Below, one piece after another: positions 7,603 through 60,356 of a DNA stretch of 64,000 bases. A model generated the notes under the pieces. It searched no databases. It was not told the DNA's origin and saw only the letters and a list, made by a program, of their open reading frames with translations. Where the stretch lies: the NCBI GenBank assembly GCA_013044175.1, contig JABEUY010000055.1, forward strand, positions 30,228 through 94,227. Reading direction: 5' to 3'. This DNA is from Bacilli bacterium. GTDB taxonomy: Bacteria; Bacillota; Bacilli; Alicyclobacillales; SLC66. Each line of letters begins with the position of its first letter. Positions within the stretch are counted from its first letter, which is position 1. The position numbers were made by a program, and so were the translations under genes.

Positions 7603-7679
7603 CGGAGTTTAGCGCAGTTTGGTAGCGCGCCTGCCTTGGGAGCAGGAGGTCACAGGTTCGAATCCTGTAACTCCGACCA
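7603..7679 (+). tRNA. tRNA-Pro (TGG)
   Basis: CGGAGTT/AACTCCG acceptor stem, anticodon loop CTTGGGA, GGTTCGAATCC. Confidence 0.9.
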
Positions 7680-7704
7680 ACAAAGCTTGATATAGCAAGG
7701 AAAA

Positions 7705-7759: not shown

Positions 7760-8941
7760 TCACGAATTATCTCGATGCAGAATGGCGGCTATCTTCTCTG
7801 TGGCTTCCTGTTGCATGTTTTCAGTGACATGGCTGTAGGTGTCTGCGGTCATGGCTATAGACGCATGCCCTAGTCGCTCACTAACGATTTTAAGCGGGAC
7901 GTTGGCTTGCAGGAGCAGTGTGGCATGTGTATGTCTAAGATCATGAAATGATACATGGGGCAGTTTGAGCTTGGTGATTGCAAGCCGCATATCTCTTGCT
8001 AAGGTCATAGGGTCAATTGGTGTACCATCTTTATGAGACATTACGTAGGTAGAGTCAGTGGTGATAAGCTGCCTCTGTCGCCAGTCTTGCAAGCGCGTGA
8101 GCAGTTCTGTATCAACCGGGATAGACCGGATACTTCCCGCAGTTTTTGGATCACCAACAATATCGCCTATTTTTGCCCTTCGTTGTCGTGATCGCACAAC
8201 CCGCAAAATGCCCCGCTCAAAATCCACGTCAGCCCACGTCAGCCCGCAAATTTCACCTCGGCGAAGCCCTGTTTGTAACGCCAGTGTCACGCCAATATAA
8301 GACGCTGGATGCTTGGTTTTTATGTAATCCAGCAGTGCATGGGCTTGCGCTACATCTAATACTGTACGTTTTTCAATGCGACCGTTTGGTGGATCAACAC
8401 GCACCATAGGACTAGTCACTATAGTGCCCCGCTTGACCGCTCGATTTAAGGCGGTTCGCAACACGCGATGTATACGATGGACGCTGGACGGAGCCAGACC
8501 ACGGTCCTGCAATGCGTGATACATAGTCTCGATCTGTTCATGGGTTAGTGCATCCAGATTGATAGCACCAATATAGGGAGTCATCAAATCCGCAGAATAC
8601 TTGTACGTTTCATGCGTTCGAGGCGCAACAGTAGGTTCGATCGCCGTCAGCCATTCAGTCAAGTACGCCTCGATCGTCAGCGGCGGCGTAACCGCTTGAA
8701 CCGCAGTGCTACCCTCCTTGATTGCCGCCAGTGCGCCCATCAACGCGTCTTGCGCATCCGCTTTGAGCGCAAATCCAGACCGTCGAATCTGCGGATAATT
8801 CCCTTTGACTGGATCATAAGGCAGATTGATAATGTAAGACCATTTATCGCCACGCTTGCGAACCGTTCCAGTAGCCAAAAAATCGCCTCCCACAAAATAT
8901 TTTTTTACTTCCTCAAACTTTTTTGTTTCCAGATCATCCAC
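7760..8941 (-). CDS. int: tyrosine site-specific integrase
   Basis: 393 aa. Catalytic-region motifs LRRGEICGL, HDLRHTHATLLL and LGHASIAMTADTYSH. Adjacent to tRNA-Pro. Confidence 0.9.
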   Translation of the reverse strand: MDDLETKKFEEVKKYFVGGDFLATGTVRKRGDKWSYIINLPYDPVKGNYPQIRRSGFALKADAQDALMGALAAIKEGSTAVQAVTPPLTIEAYLTEWLTAIEPTVAPRTHETYKYSADLMTPYIGAINLDALTHEQIETMYHALQDRGLAPSSVHRIHRVLRTALNRAVKRGTIVTSPMVRVDPPNGRIEKRTVLDVAQAHALLDYIKTKHPASYIGVTLALQTGLRRGEICGLTWADVDFERGILRVVRSRQRRAKIGDIVGDPKTAGSIRSIPVDTELLTRLQDWRQRQLITTDSTYVMSHKDGTPIDPMTLARDMRLAITKLKLPHVSFHDLRHTHATLLLQANVPLKIVSERLGHASIAMTADTYSHVTENMQQEATEKIAAILHRDNS

Positions 8942-17472: not shown

Positions 17473-17548
17473 AAGCAATCAGTCAATCATTCAGTCTTAC
17501 CCTTCCAAAAGAAGGGTTTTTATTTGTGTGGAGAGAGGGGTAAAACTC

Positions 17549-20494
17549 ATGAAAAAACGAGTATTGACCAGTATAGCCGCAGTCGCCGTGACGCTTACCA
17601 TGACCACCGCTTTTGCAGCAAGTCCGGTGGTCATGTTTGGCGATAACGCACAACGCACACACGCCAACAGCATTGCAGACGCGTATCCTTGGGCAAAAGA
17701 AGCCGCACTGACCTCCGCAACCGATCCCAAAACAGGGCTGACAGTCAGTAGCTTGGGCAGTAGCAGTACCGCGATTGGCGCGGGGAGCGTCCTGTTTTAT
17801 CCGGTGTCGGCAGGTACAGCCTCGAACAACTTTCAGGGGCAAGGCTATATGATTGCCTATGACACCAGCCATTGGGTAGGTGGAAAGCCTACCGTCATAG
17901 GCATCAATCAGATTCCGAACGTGTCGAACTCATCACCTGTCTATGATCCAAATAACAACGATGCTTATCTAGCGGCGGGCACTAAGTTTTATCGATTCAG
18001 CGTGGCAGGTGGCACGTTGTCGAGTATGGCGGTCAGCATTGGCGGGACAGGAACGCTTAACGGAGGTAAGAATTACAACCAAGTCGTATCATATCCGCTC
18101 TACCTGACAGCCACACAGTCTGGTTTGTCAGTTGACACGGTTTGGATTAGTACGCAGAACGGCTGGCTATACGCAATTGATCCAAACACAATGGCTGTCG
18201 TATATAGTCACAACTTTGGTGTCCGATTTGATGCCTCACCTGCGCTTGTTACTGCCACGAATGGTACACCCTACATTGCGGTAACAGGCGCGTATGATGC
18301 CAACAATGCGAGTTTTGGTGGGCAGTCAGGTACTGGAACGTTGTTTTTGATTGATCCGGTTACAGGTTTGGCGCAGTATGCAGCGAATCCTTATCCCGGA
18401 GTTCCTTCGGTAGCCTCTCCGGTTGCGACATCCAAGGGGCATGTCGCATGGAACGACACCGAGGGGGATGTGCTTCTAGGTACGATTAATCCCGGTGGTA
18501 CTATCTCAATCCTACAGCAGCACGCGAGCATAGGTGACAGTCAAACGTCCGACTTGTCCGAGTCTGGCTATGCAAACGGTCAATACATCGTACCATTTAC
18601 GGACAGGGGCATGATTGGCTACGCAACCGTCGATTTGACAGATGGATTGGTTAATCAATACAAGAGTGCTGGTACTACAGGGCAACTCTACCCAATTGGC
18701 TCACCTGAAATTTCCGCATCCTTAAACATGTATTTGGCAGATCAGGAGGGCGGTATCGACCAGATCGGACCTGACCCATCGAATGGCTATCTTTTCGACG
18801 GTACACACGGCAGTTGGCTTCCAAGTTTCGGCACATCCGGTGGCACACCGCTGTCAACGCCATCCGAACTGAACTTAGGCACTGATTTAGGCACAGTCTT
18901 GCCCACCCTGACCTTAGCAACCAATCAAGGATTGGAACTTTGGGTGAATCAGGGTGAATATTTGACGTTCGGCAGTGACTACACAAGCACGAGTCCGACC
19001 GCATTCAGCACAGGTCTGACGCTCTCAATCGGTGCAAATAACCTGTCGAAAGATGCCGGGAACACTGACAAAATCGACTTCAACATCAATCTCAACGGTG
19101 GCGCGTTTCGGAACGATGTAGGCAGTGTCTCGACCTACAATGCGGCAGGTAATCCGGTAACAGGTGCAATCACGATCCCAACCGGAACGCTGGATACGTG
19201 GTTGACGAACTACAAGACAGCACACCCAACCGCGTGGATCAGCACAGGCATGAACAATGCAGTTGTTGAAGCATATCCACAAAATGGCGATACTGGTAAC
19301 TACGTGTTCCAAGGCAGTACAGCGGCATCAGACGGTTCGAATGCCGAAGTCACAGTGTCATTTCCAGCAGCACCAGCCGCCTTGCCTACGCCGCCATCCG
19401 CGCTTACGGCTGTGAGTGACCCTAGTAGTGTTCTGCCGGGCTATACAGAATGGCGGTTTTTGTCGCCGGGCATGTTTAATGTCAACGAGGGCGTGACATA
19501 TCCGAGCGTTGACACAGCCACGATGCACACGGTTTTGGGCACAGCTTGGAAAGAGCATCCAATCCCTGAACAAGCCATCAATAGCAGCCCCGCAGCCACC
19601 ACAAGCGCGTACTACACCAATCAGCAAAACGGTGGTGGCGTGAGCGACACACAGACTGCGAACTGGTGGAACAATTTCACAATTGAATTCAACGCCACGA
19701 CACGTCCCGCCTCGTTCTCCGTGCAGGGGCAGGTCAAGACAGATGGCGACATGCTTTACCGCAAAACCTACATCGGATCATGGCAACCGCACTGGTACTG
19801 GGTGTCATTCTGGTTTGGTGGTGGGTATTGGAATTGGGACGGCTACACGCCAGTTTATAATACCGAGTATCTTTATCGGAACGTGGGGGTTGTTGAAACA
19901 GAGAGCGCGAGTCTCTCGATCCCACGTGGTGAGACGTACTGGTGGAATCCGAGTACAGTCAATGTGAGTGCAAGCGGCACATTTGGCAACGGCGATACAC
20001 CGATCACTCCTGCAGGTTCAGGTATGAGCTGGACGCAGCCAGTATGGGCAAGTTATGGCGGCTGGATACCGGGCGGCAGTCTTGAGGGTGTGGATTATTC
20101 GCAAGTACCGATCACGACAGGTTTAGGCAACACCAACACGCATGGCTTGACACCAAACAGCATGCTGCCGGGCACGTGGTACAGTGACGCGCCAATGCCA
20201 GCCCCTCCATACGGTGGGGACGATAGCTTGCAAGGCTATCCGACCGTCCATGCGTTCGATGCTGAACACAATGGCGGGGTACTCTTTCAACCGAATGTGA
20301 GCAATTCTGACTATCCACAGTTAGGATCGCCGCAATGGTGGGTACAACCGACATACACCGTCACCAGTGGCAGTGGCACATTCGAGCACCCGCAGATCAA
20401 TACGTGGGTAGACACATGGGCAAAACCGTGGGGCAACAACGGCGGTCAGGGCATCACAAGCACCTCTAAATCGACCGTGACGTGGCATAGCTAG
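17549..20494 (+). CDS. large secreted protein, N-terminal beta-propeller (PQQ/BamB-like repeats)
   Basis: ATG 17549 follows a terminator hairpin and a GAGAGAGGGG RBS. Signal peptide TAFA/ASP. WLYAIDPNTMAVVY-type repeats. About 980 aa. Confidence 0.55.
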   Translation: MKKRVLTSIAAVAVTLTMTTAFAASPVVMFGDNAQRTHANSIADAYPWAKEAALTSATDPKTGLTVSSLGSSSTAIGAGSVLFYPVSAGTASNNFQGQGYMIAYDTSHWVGGKPTVIGINQIPNVSNSSPVYDPNNNDAYLAAGTKFYRFSVAGGTLSSMAVSIGGTGTLNGGKNYNQVVSYPLYLTATQSGLSVDTVWISTQNGWLYAIDPNTMAVVYSHNFGVRFDASPALVTATNGTPYIAVTGAYDANNASFGGQSGTGTLFLIDPVTGLAQYAANPYPGVPSVASPVATSKGHVAWNDTEGDVLLGTINPGGTISILQQHASIGDSQTSDLSESGYANGQYIVPFTDRGMIGYATVDLTDGLVNQYKSAGTTGQLYPIGSPEISASLNMYLADQEGGIDQIGPDPSNGYLFDGTHGSWLPSFGTSGGTPLSTPSELNLGTDLGTVLPTLTLATNQGLELWVNQGEYLTFGSDYTSTSPTAFSTGLTLSIGANNLSKDAGNTDKIDFNINLNGGAFRNDVGSVSTYNAAGNPVTGAITIPTGTLDTWLTNYKTAHPTAWISTGMNNAVVEAYPQNGDTGNYVFQGSTAASDGSNAEVTVSFPAAPAALPTPPSALTAVSDPSSVLPGYTEWRFLSPGMFNVNEGVTYPSVDTATMHTVLGTAWKEHPIPEQAINSSPAATTSAYYTNQQNGGGVSDTQTANWWNNFTIEFNATTRPASFSVQGQVKTDGDMLYRKTYIGSWQPHWYWVSFWFGGGYWNWDGYTPVYNTEYLYRNVGVVETESASLSIPRGETYWWNPSTVNVSASGTFGNGDTPITPAGSGMSWTQPVWASYGGWIPGGSLEGVDYSQVPITTGLGNTNTHGLTPNSMLPGTWYSDAPMPAPPYGGDDSLQGYPTVHAFDAEHNGGVLFQPNVSNSDYPQLGSPQWWVQPTYTVTSGSGTFEHPQINTWVDTWAKPWGNNGGQGITSTSKSTVTWHS

Positions 20495-31402: not shown

Positions 31403-31448
31403 ATTGTCCTACCAGCCCCTTCTCTTTCATAAGAGAGGGGGCATTTTA
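31401..31448 (+). promoter_or_regulatory. ICE intercistronic box-hairpin module, copy 8
   Basis: Box AAATTGTCCTAC overlaps the stop codon; stem GCCCCTTCTCT/GAGAGGGGGC; ATG 31449. Confidence 0.7.
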
Positions 31449-32084
31449 ATGAGCAGACGACGACCACACAAAGACACAACTGTAAAAATTGGGCAGGTAG
31501 GTGAGCAGATCGTTGCCGCTTCCATTCGAAGATATTTGCAGAGCGATGCCTTGCGGACGTACAACAACGTCTATTTCCGGGATGAGCGAGGGAATCCGTT
31601 CCAAATTGATCATCTGGCATTGACTCCACAAGGTTTAATTGTCGTTGAGACGAAGCACTGGGCGGGAATGGTTTGGGGTGGCGAGTCAGAGCGCAATTGG
31701 AGTTACCTACCGAATGGCAGATATTGCTACACGCGGCAGTTCTACAGCCCGGTCCTACAAAATCGAACGCATGTCCAGAAGTTGAAACGCGTATTGGACA
31801 ATGACTTAAAAATGGCATCACTAGTCGTTTTTGGTAATCCTACGGTCACGCTGAACCTGAAAGGTGTGGAGGGCGTGTACACGCTGGCGGGGTTCGAAGC
31901 TGCACTGGAATCCATTCAGAAGATGGAGGCTATTTACGATCAAGCGGCACTGGCATTTTGGCACGAGCGGATCATGAGCAGTCGATTTGTAGACTTCGCG
32001 GGCATGTCAGAGCAGCTTGAATATGCCCAGAATGCGAAAAATCTGGGCTGCTATGTCGCACACAAGCAGGGGCTGCGCACATGA
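31449..32084 (+). CDS. NERD (nuclease-related domain) protein
   Basis: GEQIVAASIRRYL..FQIDHLALTPQGLIVVETKHWAG pattern. Confidence 0.65.
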   Translation: MSRRRPHKDTTVKIGQVGEQIVAASIRRYLQSDALRTYNNVYFRDERGNPFQIDHLALTPQGLIVVETKHWAGMVWGGESERNWSYLPNGRYCYTRQFYSPVLQNRTHVQKLKRVLDNDLKMASLVVFGNPTVTLNLKGVEGVYTLAGFEAALESIQKMEAIYDQAALAFWHERIMSSRFVDFAGMSEQLEYAQNAKNLGCYVAHKQGLRT

Positions 32085-36881: not shown

Positions 36882-37466
36882 ATGTACAGGACATACAGGG
36901 AGCTTTATCAAGTCAAGACTGAAATTACGAAAATCGGCACAGGGGCAGGAGCTTTAAAGATCGGCAAATACTTGTCTGTTGGTCTGGACATAGTGGGCTT
37001 GGGCGTGATCGGTGCGATTTTTCCGGGCATATTCGTTGCGGCAATCCTTCATGCAGTCTATCATCCAATCTCGCGCATTGTGTGGATGGTGGCTATCGGT
37101 GTCATGATAGGTTGGGCAGCGAAGCAATTCGACCCTAAAGGCAAGAGCGTACTGGCTTACGCTGGTGATGTGATTGCATATCTTCGCCGTAAGAGAATGA
37201 GTGACGGCTTTAAGCCTGTAGCCTTACTCAAAAATCCAAGTGTGCCCCGCTTCGCGTTCTATGCTGTAGACCAAGGCACTGCACAGGCGACACCGATCAC
37301 TGGAAAAGGCGCATTCACACTGCTAAAGCCGATGGGTGTACGAGTCATGAAAGATGGCACATGGCTCATCAAGCGTTCTAGTCACCCGCTACCGGTTGGA
37401 AAATATAGGATAGTGAACGGTCAGGTCAAGCCTGTCTCACCAATGCCAATTTTACAGCAAGAATAG
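36882..37466 (+). CDS. TcpE/VirB3-like small membrane protein (candidate)
   Basis: Two TM helices. Lies immediately upstream of VirB4, as in Tn916/pCW3-type loci. Confidence 0.4.
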   Translation: MYRTYRELYQVKTEITKIGTGAGALKIGKYLSVGLDIVGLGVIGAIFPGIFVAAILHAVYHPISRIVWMVAIGVMIGWAAKQFDPKGKSVLAYAGDVIAYLRRKRMSDGFKPVALLKNPSVPRFAFYAVDQGTAQATPITGKGAFTLLKPMGVRVMKDGTWLIKRSSHPLPVGKYRIVNGQVKPVSPMPILQQE

Positions 37467-37505
37467 TCCCACAGCCCCTTCTCTCTAATGAGAGGGGGTT
37501 TTTTC
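37461..37505 (+). promoter_or_regulatory. ICE intercistronic box-hairpin module, copy 12
   Basis: Box GAATAGTCCCAC contains the TAG stop; stem CCCCTTCTCTC/GAGAGGGGG; TTTTTT; ATG 37506. Confidence 0.7.
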
Positions 37506-39911
37506 ATGGCACAACCAGTCATTTATGCAGAAAATGGAATTGTGATAGATAATCGAGCGCGAGGTTATGCCGTTTATGTTGTTGACGCAGACCTGCGACC
37601 GTTGACGAGTGCAGGGGCGCAGAATCAAGCAATATCAGCACTCGCCAAAGGCATGAAGGAGGTACTAGGCGAATGGCACGTGTACAGCCTTGCGATTGGT
37701 GTACCGCCTAATACTTGGAAGGAACGATTCTTGAAAACCGAGCACCCATTGAGTGTCGATCATGTGGCTGCGGGCTTGAAAAAGTCGGCTGGTGTGTTGT
37801 TTGAGAGGCGCGTTTACATCGTCGTGCCAATCAGTAACAAACTGACAATCCAGCTTAAAGATAATGGTAAAGAATTCCTGCAAGCTGCCAAGCGGACACT
37901 AACACACTCGGTCAAACGCGCATTAAGACTCGAAAATTTTCATGTCCAGCTCTTGGAACAGTTCGAAGAAGAGAGGCGTGTCTGGCACAGGAAATTCAGG
38001 GCATTCCTAAAGCTGCACCCGGCATCACAAGTCGAATTGGAAACGTGGCTACGTCACGGATTTTATCGTGGAGGTGTAGCCCCGGACAGCCGTTTCCCAA
38101 AAAACCTACCAGCTTTCGTGAGTTCGGATGGCGTGATTCACCCACAGCACCATCTTGGCATTTGGACACATGATGGAGTCCTGAAGGAGTCATTCTACAA
38201 CCTCAAAGTCATTCAGCCGACCAAAAACGAGTCCTATCAAACGTTCTACAACGTGCTAAGAGTGCCCAACGAAATCGACGAATCGGACGCAAGCGGCTAT
38301 GACTGGGTTCACCAAGTCGAATACATGGATATCCCGGTAGACGTAGCCATGCACATCCGTGTTGAGGATCCGATTGCAGCACGCAAAAACCTGCGGAAGA
38401 AGCGGCTTCGCGCCGAAAGTCAGTGGAAGGAATACGCAGAGGGCGGCGAAACACCACCGCTGGAATTAGAAGTGGATATCGAGCACACAGCCGAGCTGGA
38501 ACAGAAACTTCGGATGCGTGATCCGCTCGTTCATGTAAAAACGGTCATTGGTTTTGGTGCGGAGAGTTCGGATCGCTTGGCAGAGTACCGTAATCTGGTG
38601 CAAAGCAACCTAGCACTAACCGATCTAGTGCAGCCTCCAGCCGACCAACTAAGACTCTGGCAGTCATTCTATCCTTGGGGGCGTGGCATTTCCCAAGGCT
38701 ATGAAATCCCAATGGATGCGGGAGTTTTTGCGGCAGGGCTACCGTTTTCGACGTTGGACTTTGGCGACTCGCGGGGCTTTTATTTGGGCAAGACGCTAAA
38801 CGAGCGGTCAGTTTTTATGGACCCACGCCGCCCGGCACAGGAATTAAACATGCAGCCGTCTATTCTGCTTTGCGGTGGGTTGGGATCAGGGAAAACGAAC
38901 ACAGCCGAGTATATCGCCGCAACGTTGTACTCATGGGGCGCGAAAGGTTTCATTCAAGACCCAAAAGGTCACGACTACGATAATTTTTACAAAACTGGCG
39001 CGAGAGTCAACATGATTCGCTTGCGGGAAGAGGGAGCAGCACTCAATCCGTTCAGGTTGGGCGTGGAGGGTGTAGAGCGGGACTTACTGGATATAGTGTT
39101 TAATAATGTCACGCATGATGACAACACGCGAGATATCCGCAGTGCCTTGATCGGTCAGGCTTTAACGGCTGTCAAAGCACAGGAAGTTCAGGATATGCAC
39201 ACGTTCGGTAATGCTTTGGCGGCTCTAAGACAAGCCGAGACACGCGAAGTCTATGTCCTACAGCTTGACCTGCTCTTGGGCATGATGGGCGATTTACTTA
39301 GTAATCCTCTTGGGCGCGTCCTGTTCGGCAAGGATTCGCAAGGACAGACACCACAAGACTACGATGTTACGATTGTGGATACAAGCGGGTTGACGATCCC
39401 CAATGGCACACCCAAAACATTGAATGAGCGTTTGAGCGTTGCCCTCTATTACGCGGTGGCAGGAATGGGTATGGGGTACTTCTCGAACCTGCCACAATCA
39501 GTTCTAAAGTTCATGATCTTGGACGAGGCTTGGACGTTGCGAAAGTTCTCACAAGGCGTGGATTTGGTGGACAATCTCTTGCGCAAGTCTCGATCCCTGA
39601 ACATTGTGCCCTTGATGCTCATGCAGAATGCTACGGACTTCGCGAACTGGGGCGAGAGCATTGATGGACTGTTCGCTTGGCGGTTTGTCATGCGTCAGAA
39701 TTCGCAAGTCGAGACTGCCGCAGCCCTCAAATTGGCGGGGTTGGATCACGAGGACGCGCAATATTGGTATAAGGTATTCGCGAGTTTCAGACCCGGTGAA
39801 GGGTTGGTGGTGGATGCACTGGGGCGCGTTCAGCAAATGCAAGTCGAAATGTTGCCACACAAGCTGCTGGCGTGGTTCGATACAACGCCAAAAGCCGATG
39901 ATGGCTGGTAA
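37506..39911 (+). CDS. virB4: VirB4-family T4SS ATPase (ConE/TcpF/Orf16-like)
   Basis: About 800 aa. Walker A is CGGLGSGKTN and Walker B is FMILDEAW. Followed by a VirB6-like gene and a hydrolase. Confidence 0.8.
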   Translation: MAQPVIYAENGIVIDNRARGYAVYVVDADLRPLTSAGAQNQAISALAKGMKEVLGEWHVYSLAIGVPPNTWKERFLKTEHPLSVDHVAAGLKKSAGVLFERRVYIVVPISNKLTIQLKDNGKEFLQAAKRTLTHSVKRALRLENFHVQLLEQFEEERRVWHRKFRAFLKLHPASQVELETWLRHGFYRGGVAPDSRFPKNLPAFVSSDGVIHPQHHLGIWTHDGVLKESFYNLKVIQPTKNESYQTFYNVLRVPNEIDESDASGYDWVHQVEYMDIPVDVAMHIRVEDPIAARKNLRKKRLRAESQWKEYAEGGETPPLELEVDIEHTAELEQKLRMRDPLVHVKTVIGFGAESSDRLAEYRNLVQSNLALTDLVQPPADQLRLWQSFYPWGRGISQGYEIPMDAGVFAAGLPFSTLDFGDSRGFYLGKTLNERSVFMDPRRPAQELNMQPSILLCGGLGSGKTNTAEYIAATLYSWGAKGFIQDPKGHDYDNFYKTGARVNMIRLREEGAALNPFRLGVEGVERDLLDIVFNNVTHDDNTRDIRSALIGQALTAVKAQEVQDMHTFGNALAALRQAETREVYVLQLDLLLGMMGDLLSNPLGRVLFGKDSQGQTPQDYDVTIVDTSGLTIPNGTPKTLNERLSVALYYAVAGMGMGYFSNLPQSVLKFMILDEAWTLRKFSQGVDLVDNLLRKSRSLNIVPLMLMQNATDFANWGESIDGLFAWRFVMRQNSQVETAAALKLAGLDHEDAQYWYKVFASFRPGEGLVVDALGRVQQMQVEMLPHKLLAWFDTTPKADDGW

Positions 39912-55060: not shown

Positions 55061-55106
55061 CAATTTGTCCCCCACGTCCCTTCTCTAAATGAGAGGGGGT
55101 TTTTTC
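55061..55106 (+). promoter_or_regulatory. ICE intercistronic box-hairpin module, copy 16
   Basis: Box CAATTTGTCCCCCAC; stem CCCTTCTC/GAGAGGGGG; TTTTTT; ATG 55107. Confidence 0.7.
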
Positions 55107-57710
55107 ATGTCCGAAAAATGGGAATTTGGGAAGATCAAGACCATTCCAGACTGGATGCAGCGGTTGAAAGATCGACCTAGCAAGTCGAATACCGCAGACA
55201 CAAACGTTTCATGGGTACGCATCATTCCGTTTGCTGGACAAAAGCATGATGCCGACAAGTTGCCATCAAAACTTGGTGGCTTGGGTGGCGAGGTCCATTG
55301 GCGATTCTGCAAAGATGGTGCGGGCAAGATCAGTGTGTATGCAGGGTATCAGTCTGCCGATGCGCTGCGTAGGGCACTAGAACAACGTTTAACCGATGCC
55401 GACCTTCAAGCCACCAATGAGCCGCCGACCTACGAAGAGAAATTCGTCAACCGGGTTGGTGAGCTTGGCGGCGTTTTGAATGATAAGGCAAAACTAGAAT
55501 CGATTCTGGACGCGCTCGAAAATGACACGTATTTGGACATCGTTTTCGAACAACGCCCGGACCACGAATTCAAAAACGCACTCAAAAATCGCGGCGGTAC
55601 TGCAAAAAGCGACAAGTCTCACATGAGTGACGCGGCAGACGCTTGGAAGGAACTGTTATTTATGGACGGTAAGACCAAGCCTAAGACAGCCGCCAAGGGG
55701 CAAGCACCTGCGGAGTCAAACCCTGTCGATAAGGATCGAGCCAAGCAGATCAATGACCTGCTGGCTGAAAGCACCAACTATTTCCGTGTGTCGATCAAGC
55801 TTGGGGCAGCGCACTCCAAGCACATTCAGACGATTTTTACCGAACTTAACAGTCAATTTAAGCATCGTCACCGCCTTAGTCTGTCCGACGAGGCAAAGAG
55901 CACACTTTGGAAAAAAGGTAGCGCGGAAGGGCTGTGGCGTGAAGCAGAGTTGGCGGTTTTGGTCGCGCTGCCTGACATGACCCACACGCAGATGGCGCGA
56001 TCCGTCACGCACATGAAGCCGGGCGAACAGACATTGAATGACGATCAGTTGACAGATGGCATTGCCGTTGGTCGATTGATCCATCCAGTCAAGTCGCCGC
56101 GACTCGTCAAGATACCAACCAAACAATTTTTGCGCCATTTTTTCATGGGTGGCAAAAACGGTTCCGGGAAGTCCAGTACCGCAGTGCAAATGATTCAATC
56201 CTTGTTGGACGAATGGGGTGAGAATCCTGATTTAGCACCGGGCTTTACGTACATTGACCCGGCAGGATCGACACTCACTATTGTCCTCAATCGGTTGTTA
56301 AAGCTGGAACAGCAGGGTGTCCGTATTCCATGGGAAAAGGTGCATTACATCGACATGACACCCACATCACAGTACCCGGTGGGCTTGAATCTGCTTTACC
56401 ATGAACAAGGCGAGGGTGTGTCTGCCGTGGCATCCGGTGCGCTAGACGTGATCAAATCAGCCTTTGGCGGGGATGCCATTTTTACTGAACGCCTAATGGA
56501 AAACGGCATGATGACCCTGCTGTACGACACACATCCGCACACGATCTTAGGCTTGACCAGTATTTTACAGTACCCTGCCATGCGTGAGCACATTGACATC
56601 TTGGACCCGCTGGTGCAAGAGTTTTGGGAGACAACTGGGAATGACCTGAAACCGAAAGACCTCGATCCGCTGCTGAATCGGTTGCGCCCGTTACTGATGA
56701 ATCCTGCAATGCGCCGCATTTTTGGGCAGCAGGACTGGACACTAGACATCCTCAAATGGATGGACGAAGGACACATCGTTTTGGTCAACGTGTTAAACCT
56801 CGAACCAAAAAACATGGGGCTGGTTGGTGGTCAATTCTTGATGCGATATCACGCCACCGCCAAAACGCGTGAACCGGACATTTCCAAGCCTCACATCCTG
56901 ATGATTGACGAGGCACATAATGTCCGGGTTCCAATTCTCGAAAAGGTGATTGCCGAAGATCGCAAGTTTGGGTTGAGCCTTGGACTGATCACGCAATTCC
57001 CGGAACAGTTTGATGGATTGCTGCTAAAGTCGATATCGGAGAATATGGGCACATTTTTGACTTGCACGGTAGGTCCGAGTTCCGCATCCGTCATGTCCAA
57101 AATGATGAATGGCGCATTTGCAGGTGGCATACTTCAAGGTTTGCCGACGAGCCGTGTAGCGGTTTACACGAGCATCGATGGAGAGCCGCTGTCATTCACC
57201 GTCAAGTCTGACCCGCCTGTGATTTATCGTCCTACTGGTGAGCTTGCCCGGTACGAAGATGCAGCCGCGATGCGGGACGCGCAGGGCTGGGCAAAGGCAA
57301 AAGCGGAGGCATTGTCTAGTCGTGATGGCAAGAGCAGCGAGGCTGTGGACCAAGAGATCGCTGCATATTTCGAGTGGTTGAAGCAGTTTAAGGATGTAGA
57401 CGAAGATGAGGACAAGCCAAACGGTAAGCCCTCGAAAGAGGTCAAGGTCTACAAGCCAACCGCCGATGAGCAAGTGGTTTTGGAAGGGCTATGCGCTCTC
57501 GTTGGTGATCGCGGTGGTTGGGAAGGGCGAACCAGTGAGTTGTTGACAGCGTTAGAGGACGTGCTGGACGCGGCGGTTTTGGAGGATTGGACAGCTAAAG
57601 TTCTAGGCGTGTTGTTGTCCAAAGCCGTGACATACCTCGCGGTGCATGGAATACAGGCAAACAGTGTGCGCAAAGAGAAGGGTACATTCTGGTCTTTCCA
57701 AAGTTCGTAA
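55107..57710 (+). CDS. T4SS coupling-protein-like P-loop ATPase (VirD4/TraD/TraG-like) without N-terminal TM
   Basis: Walker A is GGKNGSGKSST and Walker B is ILMIDEAHN, plus GLSLGLITQFPEQF. The C-terminal 87 aa is shared with the next gene. Confidence 0.6.
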   Translation: MSEKWEFGKIKTIPDWMQRLKDRPSKSNTADTNVSWVRIIPFAGQKHDADKLPSKLGGLGGEVHWRFCKDGAGKISVYAGYQSADALRRALEQRLTDADLQATNEPPTYEEKFVNRVGELGGVLNDKAKLESILDALENDTYLDIVFEQRPDHEFKNALKNRGGTAKSDKSHMSDAADAWKELLFMDGKTKPKTAAKGQAPAESNPVDKDRAKQINDLLAESTNYFRVSIKLGAAHSKHIQTIFTELNSQFKHRHRLSLSDEAKSTLWKKGSAEGLWREAELAVLVALPDMTHTQMARSVTHMKPGEQTLNDDQLTDGIAVGRLIHPVKSPRLVKIPTKQFLRHFFMGGKNGSGKSSTAVQMIQSLLDEWGENPDLAPGFTYIDPAGSTLTIVLNRLLKLEQQGVRIPWEKVHYIDMTPTSQYPVGLNLLYHEQGEGVSAVASGALDVIKSAFGGDAIFTERLMENGMMTLLYDTHPHTILGLTSILQYPAMREHIDILDPLVQEFWETTGNDLKPKDLDPLLNRLRPLLMNPAMRRIFGQQDWTLDILKWMDEGHIVLVNVLNLEPKNMGLVGGQFLMRYHATAKTREPDISKPHILMIDEAHNVRVPILEKVIAEDRKFGLSLGLITQFPEQFDGLLLKSISENMGTFLTCTVGPSSASVMSKMMNGAFAGGILQGLPTSRVAVYTSIDGEPLSFTVKSDPPVIYRPTGELARYEDAAAMRDAQGWAKAKAEALSSRDGKSSEAVDQEIAAYFEWLKQFKDVDEDEDKPNGKPSKEVKVYKPTADEQVVLEGLCALVGDRGGWEGRTSELLTALEDVLDAAVLEDWTAKVLGVLLSKAVTYLAVHGIQANSVRKEKGTFWSFQSS

Positions 57711-57754
57711 ATTGTCCCACAACCCCTTCTCTTAATGAGAGGGGGCTGTTTTAT
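57709..57754 (+). promoter_or_regulatory. ICE intercistronic box-hairpin module, copy 17
   Basis: Box AAATTGTCCCAC overlaps the stop codon; stem CCCCTTCTC/GAGAGGGGG; TTG 57755 (or ATG 57764). Confidence 0.7.
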
Positions 57755-58561
57755 TTGCTCGAAATGAAACAGCAGTTGTGGAGTTGCCTACGTCAAAAAT
57801 GGGTAAGTGGGACGCTAGAGGAATGGGTACGACAGGATTATGTTCTGGTATTGGTCAATGAGTACGGCTATGCGTTAGAACAGATGGCAGAAGAGTTTGT
57901 CGTGAACGGTGCAGGTGCTGGACAGGCAAGGGCTGATCTGATCGTTTGGTCATCCGTAGAGGATAAACAGCAGGGCAACAGACCACTGTTTATCATTGAG
58001 TGTAAAGGCACTGATGATGAGATTGAGCCTTCTACATTTCAGCAAGGTATGCGTTATGCACGGTTCGTCAATGCCCCTTACTTTGTAGCTAGAAACCTGT
58101 TTGAGACACGGTTTTTTGAGATCGACCACAGCAAAATGTATCCAGAGTACGAGGAAATCGGAAGACTGGAAAACACGGCGAATCCCGACTACTCTAATTA
58201 TTTCGCGATGCACAAAGCATTAAGTCGCGTAGCTTACACAGAAAATCCACCGATACCTGCTGGGTTTAGTTGTGATAGACCCAGAATGAGCGATAAGATT
58301 TATCGACCGACTAAAAATGAACTCGTTATGCTTGAAGCAGTCTGTACTCTAGTAGAGAGCCAAGCAGGTTGGGAAGGGCGCACGAGCGCGTTGTTGACCG
58401 CATTAGAGGACGTGCTGGATGCGGAAGTGCTGGAAGATTGGACAGCCAAGAATTTAGGTGTGCTGCTGGCTAAAGTCGTGACATACCTTGCAACACGCGG
58501 TATTCAGGCGCAAAACACACGAGCAAGGATGGGCAATGTTTGGTCTTTCCGTCAAATTTAA
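57755..58561 (+). CDS. HsdR-N-terminal-like PD-(D/E)xK nuclease domain protein carrying the coupling-protein C-terminal module
   Basis: ARADLIVWSS..PLFIIECKGT..QQGMRYA pattern. The C-terminal 87 aa is 64 percent identical (56/87, hand count) to 57447..57707. Confidence 0.55.
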   Translation: MLEMKQQLWSCLRQKWVSGTLEEWVRQDYVLVLVNEYGYALEQMAEEFVVNGAGAGQARADLIVWSSVEDKQQGNRPLFIIECKGTDDEIEPSTFQQGMRYARFVNAPYFVARNLFETRFFEIDHSKMYPEYEEIGRLENTANPDYSNYFAMHKALSRVAYTENPPIPAGFSCDRPRMSDKIYRPTKNELVMLEAVCTLVESQAGWEGRTSALLTALEDVLDAEVLEDWTAKNLGVLLAKVVTYLATRGIQAQNTRARMGNVWSFRQI

Positions 58562-58776
58562 TTTCCAGTTTTGCTACCTTTCAAAATTGCAAGAGTTAGT
58601 AGCAAAAGGCAAGGTGCAAACCTTTGTCCTCATTGCAAACTTGCAAACTTGCAATAGCTTTTACCGAATCGCCTATCACCCCCAAAACACCGGATCATCT
58701 TAGCGGATTTTCTGAAAAGTGAGTCCATGTGGTCATCAAAAACTGGAAAAAATCTCGAGATTTTAGCAACCAAGAG

Positions 58777-59160
58777 TACGAATCTGTACGAGTTTAGGAC
58801 AAAATGCCGAAGCCTCGCATCCATTCTAGGCTTGCGGACGATTTTTAAGGCAAAAAACTCGCATCTATGGTTCAGGGTATGTATGATTCTCGGCTACCCT
58901 GACCTAAGATGCGAGTTTTTTGATGTTGTATGTCGTGTCATGACTGAAAGAACAGAGGATTGTACGAAACTGAACGCATTGAGGACAAGGCGTTTTGGGG
59001 CTATTACGAAACTGTCCGCATTCAGGACACAAAAATGCTGTATGGCGTGTCACGGCTGAACGTTTGGGAATCTGTACGAGACTGAACGCGTTTAGGACAC
59101 GAAGATGCTGTACGCTGGGTCATGCCTGGAAGAGCGGAGGTCTGTACGAGCTTAGGAAAG
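58777..59160 (+). repeat. iteron-like array 1 (degenerate, about 5-6 units)
   Basis: Units of the form (G/T)TACGA(A/G)..(GAAC/GTCC)GC..TT.AGGACA. Two adjacent units are 42 bp apart (58961, 59003). Confidence 0.6.
58850..58921. terminator. long-stem hairpin family, copy d (operon-end punctuation)
   Basis: CAAAAAACTCGCATCT pairs with AGATGCGAGTTTTTTG (16 bp perfect), with a 40-nt loop containing an inner CAGGGTA/TACCCTG stem. Confidence 0.6.
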
Positions 59161-59221
59161 GTATAGGAACCTTAGCGGATAAGATGCTGGGATTATGAAG
59201 CTGCCCACATCTAGGCATAGA

Positions 59222-59274: not shown

Positions 59275-59721
59275 CTATTCTCGAACGCCTTGCCTAAGTG
59301 CTTGCATCCACGCAGGTGTATCCTGTTCTGCCTCCGGTTCCGGTTCCGGTTTGGCTGCTGCCTCCGGTGCTGCGGGCGGGATCATATCTGCTATGGATGC
59401 CTTGACAGCGGCTATGATCTTGGTTTCTACTGCGGTTAGTTTGTCCTCTATTGATCTATCAATTGTCAAGTCAAGAGTTTCTAAAATCGGATCCAACTCA
59501 TCGTGTATCAATCGTTTTACCTCATCTACACTCATGCCCTCGCTACCACGATTGCCCGCCTGTGCGTCATATTGTAGCTGTCTTAGCAGTAGCCCTCGCG
59601 CCCATTGTGAGGTCGAACCTGCTGGAATGGCGGCGATAAAATCCGTGTCCGTGTCATAGATTGGAATGTGGATCAAGCGAATACGTTTAGGTCGATCCGG
59701 TTTCTGCTTCGCGGTGCTCAT
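59275..59721 (-). CDS. hypothetical protein (Pro/Ala/Glu-rich C-terminus)
   Basis: 148 aa. Its start overlaps the stop of the upstream ASCH-like gene. Confidence 0.5.
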   Translation of the reverse strand: MSTAKQKPDRPKRIRLIHIPIYDTDTDFIAAIPAGSTSQWARGLLLRQLQYDAQAGNRGSEGMSVDEVKRLIHDELDPILETLDLTIDRSIEDKLTAVETKIIAAVKASIADMIPPAAPEAAAKPEPEPEAEQDTPAWMQALRQGVRE

Positions 59722-59981
59722 TAGTGTACGTCCTCCTCTAGTGGTGCGATTGACAAGGCTACATAGCCATCTGGTACATACGGTGCGCCTTGCAGGATGT
59801 GTGTTATCTCGCGGTAAACCTTGCGTCCGGTGTATGGCGATCTCTTGTGCGCATCGAATTCTTCCAAAACCAGCACATCACCGACTCGATACGGTTTGTC
59901 TGCGATTCGAATTTCGACTCGTTTACGGTCCTGTAAGACAGCCTCGAAATATTCTGTGGATAGTTTTAGTTTGCGAATCAT
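59721..59981 (-). CDS. ASCH/DUF3850-like domain protein
   Basis: MIRKLKLSTEYFEAVLQDRKRVEIRIADKPYRVGDVLVLEEF. Start set by GAAGGAGG and the minus-strand box module. Confidence 0.55.
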   Translation of the reverse strand: MIRKLKLSTEYFEAVLQDRKRVEIRIADKPYRVGDVLVLEEFDAHKRSPYTGRKVYREITHILQGAPYVPDGYVALSIAPLEEDVH

Positions 59982-60026
59982 GGGTGTGCCTCCTTCTATA
60001 TTCTGTGGGGGCTGTAGGACAATTTT
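59982..60026 (-). promoter_or_regulatory. ICE intercistronic box module, copy 18 (minus strand)
   Basis: The reverse complement reads AAAATTGTCCTACAGCCCCCACAGAATATAGAAGGAGGCACACCC followed by ATG. Confidence 0.55.
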
Positions 60027-60066
60027 TATGAATTTGAACATGTTACGGACTTAATATTTTGATCGG

Positions 60067-60356
60067 ATTACGAATTTGAACGAATTGCGGACATGGCTTT
60101 TGGGGGTGATTACGAATTCGAACACATTTAGGACATGGGTTTTTGCCTCGATTACGAATTTGAACGAGTTTAGGACATGGCGTTTTGGGGTTATTACGAA
60201 TTAGTCCGCATTATGGACATGGCATTTTGGGGTGATTACGAATTAGTCCCTAATGCGGACTAGCTCAAAACGTAAAAATGGACTAAATTACGAAAGTGTA
60301 CGAGTTACATACACGTCGATTTAGTCCGTTACGAAAATGTCCACATTCAGGACAGA
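60067..60356 (+). repeat. iteron array 2: five phased 42-bp units plus two degenerate units
   Basis: ATTACGAAtt.GAAC...TT..GGACATGG..TTTTGGGG units start at 60067, 60109, 60151, 60193 and 60235, with degenerate units at 60287 and about 60328. Confidence 0.75.

Follow-up and report, generated by a model that had tools for sequence, protein, structure and literature searches.

The 64,000-nucleotide stretch of DNA analyzed here (the window) contains all but the rightmost 2.6 kb of an integrative conjugative element in a Bacillota genome, with nearest relatives in Alicyclobacillaceae. The subject of the analysis is a pair of adjacent genes of this element on the + strand. The first (55107..57710) encodes an ATPase of 867 amino acids (aa) with a presumed role in DNA transfer, and the second (57755..58561), which starts with TTG at 57755 and lies 44 nt downstream of the ATPase gene, encodes a chimeric nuclease protein of 268 aa. 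The initial annotation of this DNA, made by eye, placed the ATPase start at the ATG at 55107, and we agree; the longer open reading frame (ORF) from 55089 begins within a hairpin upstream of the gene.

A common C-terminal module in the ATPase and the nuclease protein

The two proteins end in similar segments, module copy A at the C-terminus of the ATPase (57435..57707, + strand) and module copy B at the C-terminus of the nuclease protein (58289..58558, + strand), which are 66% identical to each other. The hand count of the initial annotation, 56 identical residues out of 87 between the translations of 57447..57707 and 58298..58558, was reproduced exactly; the corresponding DNA is identical at 165 of 261 positions. 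BLASTP comparison of the whole proteins gave 65/131 identities (E = 4e-36).

AlphaFold2 (AF2) modelled the module with a pLDDT of 88.6 from an 11-sequence alignment, with the topology helix-strand-helix-helix-strand-strand of a winged helix. When the model was compared with the PDB by Foldseek, all the matches were winged-helix proteins (PadR, MarR/HxlR, kleisin/Nse, and Cdt1) with weak E-values of 0.05-0.5, and among viral models the best matches came from phage helicases, primases, and ATP-binding proteins, in each case from the C-terminal domain (TM-score at most 0.72, E from 0.0035). The shared module is confidently predicted from these models to be a discrete winged-helix domain. It had been suggested in the initial annotation that the module docks both proteins to a common partner or DNA site; the predicted fold is indeed of the docking kind, but it does not settle whether the ligand is DNA or protein. 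We infer that the module may bind DNA.

A HMMER profile built from the two copies and run exhaustively against 1.84 billion representative proteins found the nuclease protein and, otherwise, only members of the same ATPase family, either at their C-termini or as fragments of these. Since nothing else was found, the module is native to the C-terminus of this ATPase clade, with the nuclease protein as its only other known carrier. In 4 of 28 ATPase relatives the equivalent C-terminal position is occupied by FtsK_gamma, and the module matches no FtsK_gamma model. Neither did it resemble the profile of Replic_Relax (hhalign probability 0.2%), and its own profile is unrelated to the P4-type helicase of the element and to its anti-repressor-like 270-aa protein. 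An FtsK-gamma ATPase of Cohnella has no module in common with its own Replic_Relax neighbor, and therefore the kind of sharing found in the window is not a general feature of the family.

The substitution pattern shows that both copies are maintained by purifying selection. The copies are 66% identical to each other and 31-46% identical to the orthologous modules of the nearest ATPases. Synonymous sites between copies A and B are saturated (proportion of synonymous differences, pS, 0.66-0.76), with a nonsynonymous divergence (dN) of 0.18-0.28. Between orthologous ATPases, dN is 0.45-0.62 in the module as against 0.15-0.25 in the motor core. By this pattern the module evolves fast between elements, as expected of a specificity domain, and its two copies within this element have been kept alike. 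Recent duplication and ongoing gene conversion were both ruled out as explanations of the likeness by the saturation of the synonymous sites.

In the 268-aa protein, the module follows an HSDR_N_2 domain of the PD-(D/E)xK type (residues ~5-140) and a linker of ~40 aa, and it covers residues ~179-268. The assignment as an HsdR-N-type nuclease made in the initial annotation was borne out by a match to HSDR_N_2 (PF13588; E = 1.7e-20, 73.6 bits with a cut-off of 25, residues 22-129) with the E, D, and ExK residues intact: E22/E23, D61, E82, and K84 are the same in all of the nearest relatives aligned. The domain also matches the N-terminus of the PADLOC family MTase_I (PDLC03018; E = 3.5e-32), and it is 42-46% identical to the N-termini of ~740-aa proteins of the same bacterial family in which HSDR_N_2 is joined to an N6-methyltransferase. 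The homology ends at about residue 140, where the methylase part of these restriction-modification (RM) methyltransferases would begin. The cleavage domain is thus, by these similarities, of the type found at the N-termini of RM methyltransferases. The nearest relative of the domain is the N-terminus of a 741-aa protein of this kind (locus L010, genome G046, contig C7), the gene of which adjoins a phage-type integrase gene and so lies on a mobile element.

No methyltransferase or helicase domain was found in the 268-aa protein by Pfam or PADLOC, and its neighbors are conjugation genes. No PADLOC system model matches the whole protein, a PDB sequence search gave nothing meaningful, and a word-index search for full-length homologues returned only the protein itself. 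There was no match to PF13814 at E <= 0.1, and BLASTP against the Cohnella Replic_Relax protein found nothing.

The ATPase gave weak Pfam matches to TraG-D_C, AAA_22, and DUF87, further weak matches to CedD and HerA, and likewise weak PDB matches to HerA chains. It did not reach the Pfam thresholds for VirD4, TraG, or VirB4 (TraG-D_C 17.6 bits, cut-off 22), and neither FtsK_SpoIIIE nor FtsK_gamma matches it. As stated in the initial annotation, it lacks an N-terminal transmembrane anchor; no transmembrane segment was found anywhere in the protein, the highest 19-residue Kyte-Doolittle mean being only 1.36 and located in the C-terminal module. Instead, the soluble N-terminal domain (55107..56018, + strand; 310 residues, AF2 pLDDT 79.7 with a 30-sequence alignment) has a predicted fold like that of the VirB4/TrwK N-terminal domain. 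All of the top eight Foldseek matches in the PDB were TrwK/VirB4 of R388 (E 2e-5 to 4e-4, probability 1.0), and according to the models this VirB4-like domain replaces the transmembrane anchor of classical coupling proteins. The earlier description as 'coupling-protein-like' has to be qualified, since the profile threshold for coupling proteins is not reached and the N-terminal 310 residues are predicted to be of the VirB4/TrwK kind. We regard the ATPase as a divergent member of the HerA/FtsK/VirD4-VirB4 superfamily and as the presumed DNA-coupling motor of the element. The coupling role is assigned by elimination, because a CpaF/VirB11-like ATPase and a bona fide VirB4 are already present in the element.

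Homologues of the ATPase, 69 in all, were detected in Alicyclobacillaceae, Paenibacillaceae, Thermoactinomycetaceae, and Bacillaceae. Among 28 relatives scanned with Pfam, DUF87 was found in 17, TrwB_AAD_bind in 13, TraG-D_C in 8, FtsK_SpoIIIE in 7, and FtsK_gamma in 4, the TrwB_AAD_bind and TraG-D_C matches being weak. The models suggest a family of soluble motors in which a VirB4-like docking domain precedes a core of the HerA/FtsK/VirD4 type and the winged helix at the C-terminus varies from member to member. Family members with FtsK_gamma C-termini occur in Cohnella and in metagenomes, with a MOBC relaxase gene next to the ATPase gene (loci L026/L005 and L028; P0022, P0044, P0051, and P0055). 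We know of no description of an FtsK_gamma tail with an adjacent MOBC relaxase gene for coupling proteins of secretion systems.

The relaxase slot and the search for a canonical relaxase

In 31 of 45 loci of the ATPase family, the gene directly downstream of the ATPase gene encodes a protein of 260-320 aa. These proteins cluster together, and each of the 27 that were scanned proved to be Replic_Relax. The 268-aa gene lies in this same slot, and its product shares with the MOBC proteins the size and the two kinds of domain, in reversed order. Replic_Relax corresponds to the MOBC relaxase superfamily (PMC5357655) and consists of PD-(D/E)xK nucleases that are usually fused to a helix-turn-helix domain (PMC3424549). 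TraX of pAD1, the MOBC prototype, has an N-terminal winged helix-turn-helix domain, forms no covalent intermediate, and binds five direct repeats located 70-120 bp from the nic site (PMC12857230). Since MOBC relaxases combine a PD-(D/E)xK nuclease and a winged helix-turn-helix in the same slot, a PD-(D/E)xK enzyme as the DNA-processing partner of the ATPase has both precedent and support from gene order. The proposal in the initial annotation that the nuclease protein is the DNA-processing enzyme of the system is favored by these two points, and it is weakened by the orphan architecture of the protein and its absence from nine sister elements.

A second clade of ATPases has no adjacent Replic_Relax gene (loci L032-L035, L038, and L039, from Thermoactinomyces and Hazenella); the next gene there encodes a membrane protein of ~100 aa. 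A gene resembling chalcone-synthase-type polyketide synthases lies further downstream in these loci; in five of the six it comes right after the gene for the membrane protein. We considered, and rejected, as a relaxase gene the 362-aa gene found downstream of the ATPases of Thermoactinomyces, as its sequence reads as such a polyketide synthase, hence as cargo.

Pfam scans of every ORF in the complete element, from its left to its right attachment site, revealed no relaxase family. A six-frame search of the whole genome assembly (2.54 Mb, 91.6% complete, with the window on a 105.8-kb contig) was then evaluated with hidden Markov models (HMMs) for Replic_Relax, Rep_trans, Relaxase, MobA_MobL, Mob_Pre, TrwC, and TraI_2 (PF13814, PF02486, PF03432, PF03389, PF01076, PF08751, and PF07514), which stand for MOBC, MOBT, MOBP, MOBQ, MOBV, MOBF, and MOBH. 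None of the seven gave a match, under conditions where the positive controls gave matches in control genomes. Judged by these profiles, a canonical relaxase is absent from the complete element and from the genome, which extends the earlier observation that none was visible in the 56 kb of the element inside the window. The initial annotation had left room for a relaxase to the right of the window; only part of the helicase gene, a PrimPol gene, a 239-aa ORF, and the right attachment site are found there. The 988-aa protein encoded at 17528-20494 was also considered and ruled out, since it is a secreted surface protein rich in Thr, Ser, and Gly with a signal peptide.

Maximum-likelihood analysis of 49 ATPases placed the ten proteins that bear the module in one clade (support 100/100) nested among MOBC-associated ATPases. 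The most parsimonious order of events would be an ancestral MOBC partner, followed at the base of the clade by loss of the MOBC gene and appearance of the winged-helix tail, and finally acquisition of the nuclease only in the lineage of the window.

Cis region, repeats, and the rest of the element

The stop codon of the nuclease gene is followed directly by a conserved cis region (58562..58750, + strand), a candidate origin of transfer (oriT) or loading site. It comprises TTTCCAG at 58562, four copies of TTGCAA in 58587-58654, and an inverted CTGGAAA at 58743-58749. In all nine sister loci, TT(T/C)CCA(A/G) occurs within 1-14 nt of the ATPase stop codon and is followed by an array of short element-specific repeats, the units being GTTGCAAC, TTGCAG, CTTGCAG, and TGCAGAAG, and TGACGGATAT in L013, the module of which diverges most. 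A second copy of TT(T/C)CCA(A/G) lies at +175 to +240 and is usually inverted (CTGGAAA or TTGGAAA); it is unmatched in L067, and the copies are direct in L012. The cis region thus comes right after the gene that carries the module in each of the ten elements, and in the window the layout follows the nuclease stop codon rather than that of the ATPase gene. Since the whole layout has this position, the module copy of the nuclease protein occupies the ancestral place beside the cis region. The genes past the cis region in L012 (11001-12140) and L013 (5234-6124) read, as we take it, as a DUF6011-type zinc-ribbon protein with RadC/JAB and as a Dam-like methyltransferase. Such DUF6011-RadC-like and Dam-like methylase genes are typical of leading regions, which fits a candidate origin of transfer at the cis region.

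Both genes of the pair are preceded by the same junction module on the + strand, consisting of a box and a hairpin. Upstream of the ATPase gene (55064..55100) it reads TTTGTCCCCCAC followed by a CCCTTCTCT/AGAGGGGG hairpin, the 3' arm of which is the ribosome-binding site. Between the ATPase stop codon and the nuclease start (57712..57745) it reads TTGTCCCACA followed by CCCCTTCTCT-TAATG-AGAGGGGG, and the ribosome-binding site of the nuclease gene lies 9 nt ahead of the TTG at 57755. The module, with its TTGTCCCACA box and CCCCTTCTCT/AGAGGGGG hairpin, is found also before the VirB4 gene (37465-37505). It includes an ATG, so that naive ORFs of the ATPase and VirB4 open with a spurious 'MRGGFFM' and the real starts lie 18 nt downstream. 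Unlike the nuclease gene, the low-GC cargo island of the element has no junction module.

To the right of the cis region lies a 26-nt iteron array (TTACGAAnnTGnnCGnnTTnAGGACA; 58776..59218, + strand) that includes a long hairpin at 58851-58922, and further on a second 26-nt array (60025..60354, + strand) with 42-bp phasing. Between them is the gene for a 148-aa protein (59275..59721, - strand) that is conserved beside the ATPase in the sister elements. Homologues accompany the ATPase in every one of these, 0.5-0.7 kb downstream in most and further away in L013, L014, and L069. The 148-aa protein gave no match in Pfam, PDB, PADLOC, or PHROGs. By eye, its N-terminus looks ribbon-helix-helix (RHH)-like, and the protein may be a relaxosome accessory protein or a regulator. 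In the window its gene is inverted relative to sisters L016 and L067-L070, where it is on the same strand as the ATPase gene. The inverted gene is paired with an ASCH/DUF3850 gene (together 59275-60041, - strand) and the two iteron arrays bracket the pair, which suggests that the cassette is invertible or rearranged.

The element is integrated in a tRNA-Pro gene (7603-7679). Its left end, attL, is the 47-bp 3' end of this gene (7634..7680, + strand), which recurs on the contig as an exact direct repeat; the second copy, attR, is at window-equivalent positions 66623-66669, 2.6 kb right of the window edge. The repeats delimit an element of ~59 kb, with a tyrosine integrase gene (7760-8941, - strand) next to attL. 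The 2.6 kb past the window hold the start of the P4-type helicase gene, the PrimPol gene, the 239-aa ORF, and attR. In the Pfam scans of the element ORFs we found a Tad-type pilus set (a CpaF-like ATPase with an intein, two TadB/C-like proteins, a prepilin peptidase, CpaB, and a TadZ-like protein) and a Gram-positive secretion system (TcpE, VirB4-like AAA_10, a VirB6-like protein, and a lytic transglycosylase (SLT)). The VirB4-like ATPase (37488-39911; AAA_10, E = 2e-29) is conventional and separate from the transfer ATPase. SNF2, NERD, resolvase, ParM-like, and EAL proteins are also encoded, together with a low-GC 5-methylcytosine (m5C) restriction-modification island and a PrimPol/P4-helicase replication module. 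The NERD protein (31404-32084) is a stand-alone protein with a PD-(D/E)xK-type nuclease domain, encoded in a block with the resolvase that interrupts the tad operon. It is a second candidate nuclease of the element.

Possible roles of the 268-aa protein

The reading that we tentatively prefer, although we hold it somewhat more likely to be wrong than right, is that the 268-aa protein is a lineage-specific DNA-processing nuclease, analogous to MOBC relaxases and targeted together with the ATPase. The clade of this element would have lost its MOBC gene, and in this one lineage the empty slot would have been refilled by a chimeric gene joining a restriction-type PD-(D/E)xK domain for cleavage to a second, duplicated copy of the winged helix that ends the ATPase. 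The same winged helix would bring the ATPase and the nuclease to the same target, most likely the cis region that begins one base past the nuclease stop codon with its TTTCCAG, TTGCAA repeats, and inverted CTGGAAA. There the nuclease, like MOBC enzymes, would nick or cut the DNA of the element with no tyrosine becoming covalently linked to it, and the ATPase would then load the DNA and feed it to the VirB4/VirB6/TcpE secretion system. Transfer probably proceeds as single strands and depends on the secretion system, given that a relaxase accompanies most relatives of the ATPase. Cleavage at the cis region, and any role of the nuclease in transfer, are inferred. In favor of this reading are the place of the gene in the relaxase slot, the intact catalytic residues, the winged-helix fold of the module and its origin in the ATPase, the way in which the two copies have been kept alike, the cis region beside the module-bearing gene, the junction module and ribosome-binding site of the nuclease gene, and the lack of a canonical relaxase in element and genome.

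Several results weigh against this preferred reading. Nine sister loci from at least six assemblies have a module-bearing ATPase with no nuclease in the slot, and six-frame searches of three sister genomes found neither a Replic_Relax match above the Pfam cut-off nor an HSDR_N_2 homologue of this nuclease. (A single sub-threshold Replic_Relax stretch was seen in genome G065, with 17.6 bits against a cut-off of 25.3 and E = 0.005.) The window ATPase is nested inside the module-bearing clade of the tree, and for this reason the nuclease was added later, and transfer in the clade presumably does not require it. The 268-aa protein cannot then be the ancestral, indispensable relaxase of the clade, and the clade can do without it unless all the sister elements are defective. 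The architecture of nuclease and module has no second known example, the E-values of the module in Foldseek are weak (0.003-0.5), and the module is acidic overall (isoelectric point, pI, 4.6-5.3 in the ATPases and 6.8 in the nuclease protein), which suits protein docking equally well. It may also be that a relaxase of an undescribed family is encoded elsewhere in the element.

A bolder form of the preferred reading would be that a relaxase is in the process of being born here, that is, a new PD-(D/E)xK relaxase unrelated to Replic_Relax, the specificity of which is automatically matched to the motor because a cleavage domain without sequence specificity of its own was joined to a copy of the winged helix with which the ATPase would read its DNA site. 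We consider this doubtful.

It is possible, though on balance unlikely, that the nuclease is an accessory outside the transfer machinery, an RM-derived cleavage domain that was captured and fused to the targeting domain of the ATPase. The absence from nine sister elements makes such a status conceivable for the 268-aa protein, as the nuclease is missing from the nine sister loci and the three sister genomes and the ATPase has a derived position in the tree. The nuclease domain is nearest to the N-termini of RM methyltransferases, and the element bears other cargo of the defense type, namely the m5C restriction-modification cassette, the NERD protein, and the SNF2 protein. Moreover, the direct repeats formed by the module copies flank the nuclease gene and would permit its gain and loss by recombination. 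An accessory nuclease could act in exclusion or competition by cutting DNA with the same repeats, in a homing-like maintenance of its own gene, or in down-regulation of transfer through competition for the target, and the real nicking enzyme of the clade would be an unrecognized protein or a host factor. However, the nuclease sits in the exact relaxase slot of the family, its gene uses the junction module of the element, which the cargo island does not, and the whole protein fits no PADLOC system model. A nuclease targeted to the site of the ATPase would, in addition, cut its own element, as a relaxase does.

Another explanation keeps the nuclease as the enzyme that processes the transfer DNA and differs in the ligand of the winged helix, which would dock a protein instead of DNA and so recruit the ATPase and the nuclease to one protein partner. 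In the F plasmid, TraD is recruited by TraM through the C-terminal tail of TraD. Either part of the secretion channel or the RHH-like 148-aa protein, bound at the iterons, could be this partner. Only the 148-aa protein is found together with the ATPase in all sister elements, and the 26-nt iteron arrays flank its gene in the window. The overall acidity of the module (pI 4.6-5.3 in the ATPases) and the protein-binding winged helices among its Foldseek matches (kleisin/Nse and Cdt1 C-terminal domains) point in the same direction. On the other hand, helix 3 and the wing are mildly net basic, most so in the nuclease copy (+5), and the equivalent position in the relatives is taken by FtsK_gamma, a DNA-binding domain. 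Element-specific repeats adjoin the gene that bears the module, and in L013 a completely different repeat goes with the most divergent module. We regard protein docking as improbable.

It is extremely unlikely that the 268-aa ORF is a functionless relic of a rearrangement in which the 5' part of an RM methyltransferase gene landed in a second copy of the end of the ATPase gene. The orphan architecture and the lack of methyltransferase homology beyond about residue 140 would fit such a relic. Against it, the ORF is uninterrupted, no catalytic residue is missing, and the gene is preceded by a proper ribosome-binding site and a junction module. In addition, the saturated synonymous sites (pS 0.66-0.76) with a dN of 0.18-0.28 show that the copy has long been under purifying selection.

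If the bolder form of the preferred reading is true, the 268-aa protein would be the first conjugative nickase of the HSDR_N_2 type and a natural site-specific DNA-processing enzyme made of a cleavage domain and a targeting domain. If the protein is functional, the MOBC-like nuclease solution could be re-invented by domain shuffling, and the C-terminal winged helix of a coupling motor would be a portable specificity module common to motor and nickase. Relaxases underlie the classification and detection of conjugative elements, and many elements of Bacillota have none that is recognized by current tools. The analysis defines a previously undescribed family of soluble coupling ATPases with a VirB4-like N-terminal domain and a variable winged-helix C-terminus, usually paired with MOBC, and it identifies a clade in Sulfoacidibacillus and relatives without a recognizable relaxase, in which the initiation of transfer is a testable problem.

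Comparison with known systems

In the RM methyltransferases with HSDR_N_2 (~740 aa), the N-terminal ~135 residues are 42-46% identical to the 268-aa protein, with E, D, and ExK conserved. The 268-aa protein has a linker and an ATPase-derived winged helix instead of the methyltransferase part, and its gene lies in a conjugation operon, not in a restriction-modification locus.

As in VirD4/TraG/TrwB and VirB4/TrwK, the window ATPase has a Walker-type core of the same superfamily, and its relatives adjoin a relaxase gene. Like the VirD4/TraG/TrwB coupling proteins, it is the third ATPase, beside the CpaF/VirB11-like one and VirB4, in an element with VirB4-based secretion. Unlike them, it has no N-terminal transmembrane anchor, and a VirB4/TrwK-like N-terminal domain is predicted instead.

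In Streptomyces TraB with clt, FtsK-gamma with KOPS, and the origin-binding domain of phage P4 alpha, an NTPase motor carries a C-terminal winged helix that reads short DNA repeats. The window ATPase is similarly a hexameric-type motor of the HerA/FtsK superfamily with a predicted winged-helix end, and short repeats that are candidate targets lie at the 3' end of the gene. The difference is that the element of the window encodes a full secretion system (VirB4, VirB6-like, TcpE, and the lytic transglycosylase) and a Tad-type pilus.

The MOBC relaxases, represented by TraX of Enterococcus faecalis pAD1 and MobC of CloDF13, differ from the 268-aa protein in several respects. The catalytic family of the nuclease is HSDR_N_2, and no PF13814 signal was found in the protein or the genome. 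The nuclease is N-terminal and the winged helix C-terminal in the 268-aa protein, whereas the winged helix of TraX is N-terminal. The winged helix of the 268-aa protein is a paralogue of the ATPase tail without similarity to the Replic_Relax profile, and its nuclease activity is predicted from sequence. The likeness lies in the overall plan: in both cases a protein of ~260-320 aa combines a PD-(D/E)xK nuclease with a winged helix, which in the 268-aa protein is a predicted one, and has no HUH motif or catalytic tyrosine, its gene adjoins that of the coupling ATPase, and direct repeats lie near the gene.

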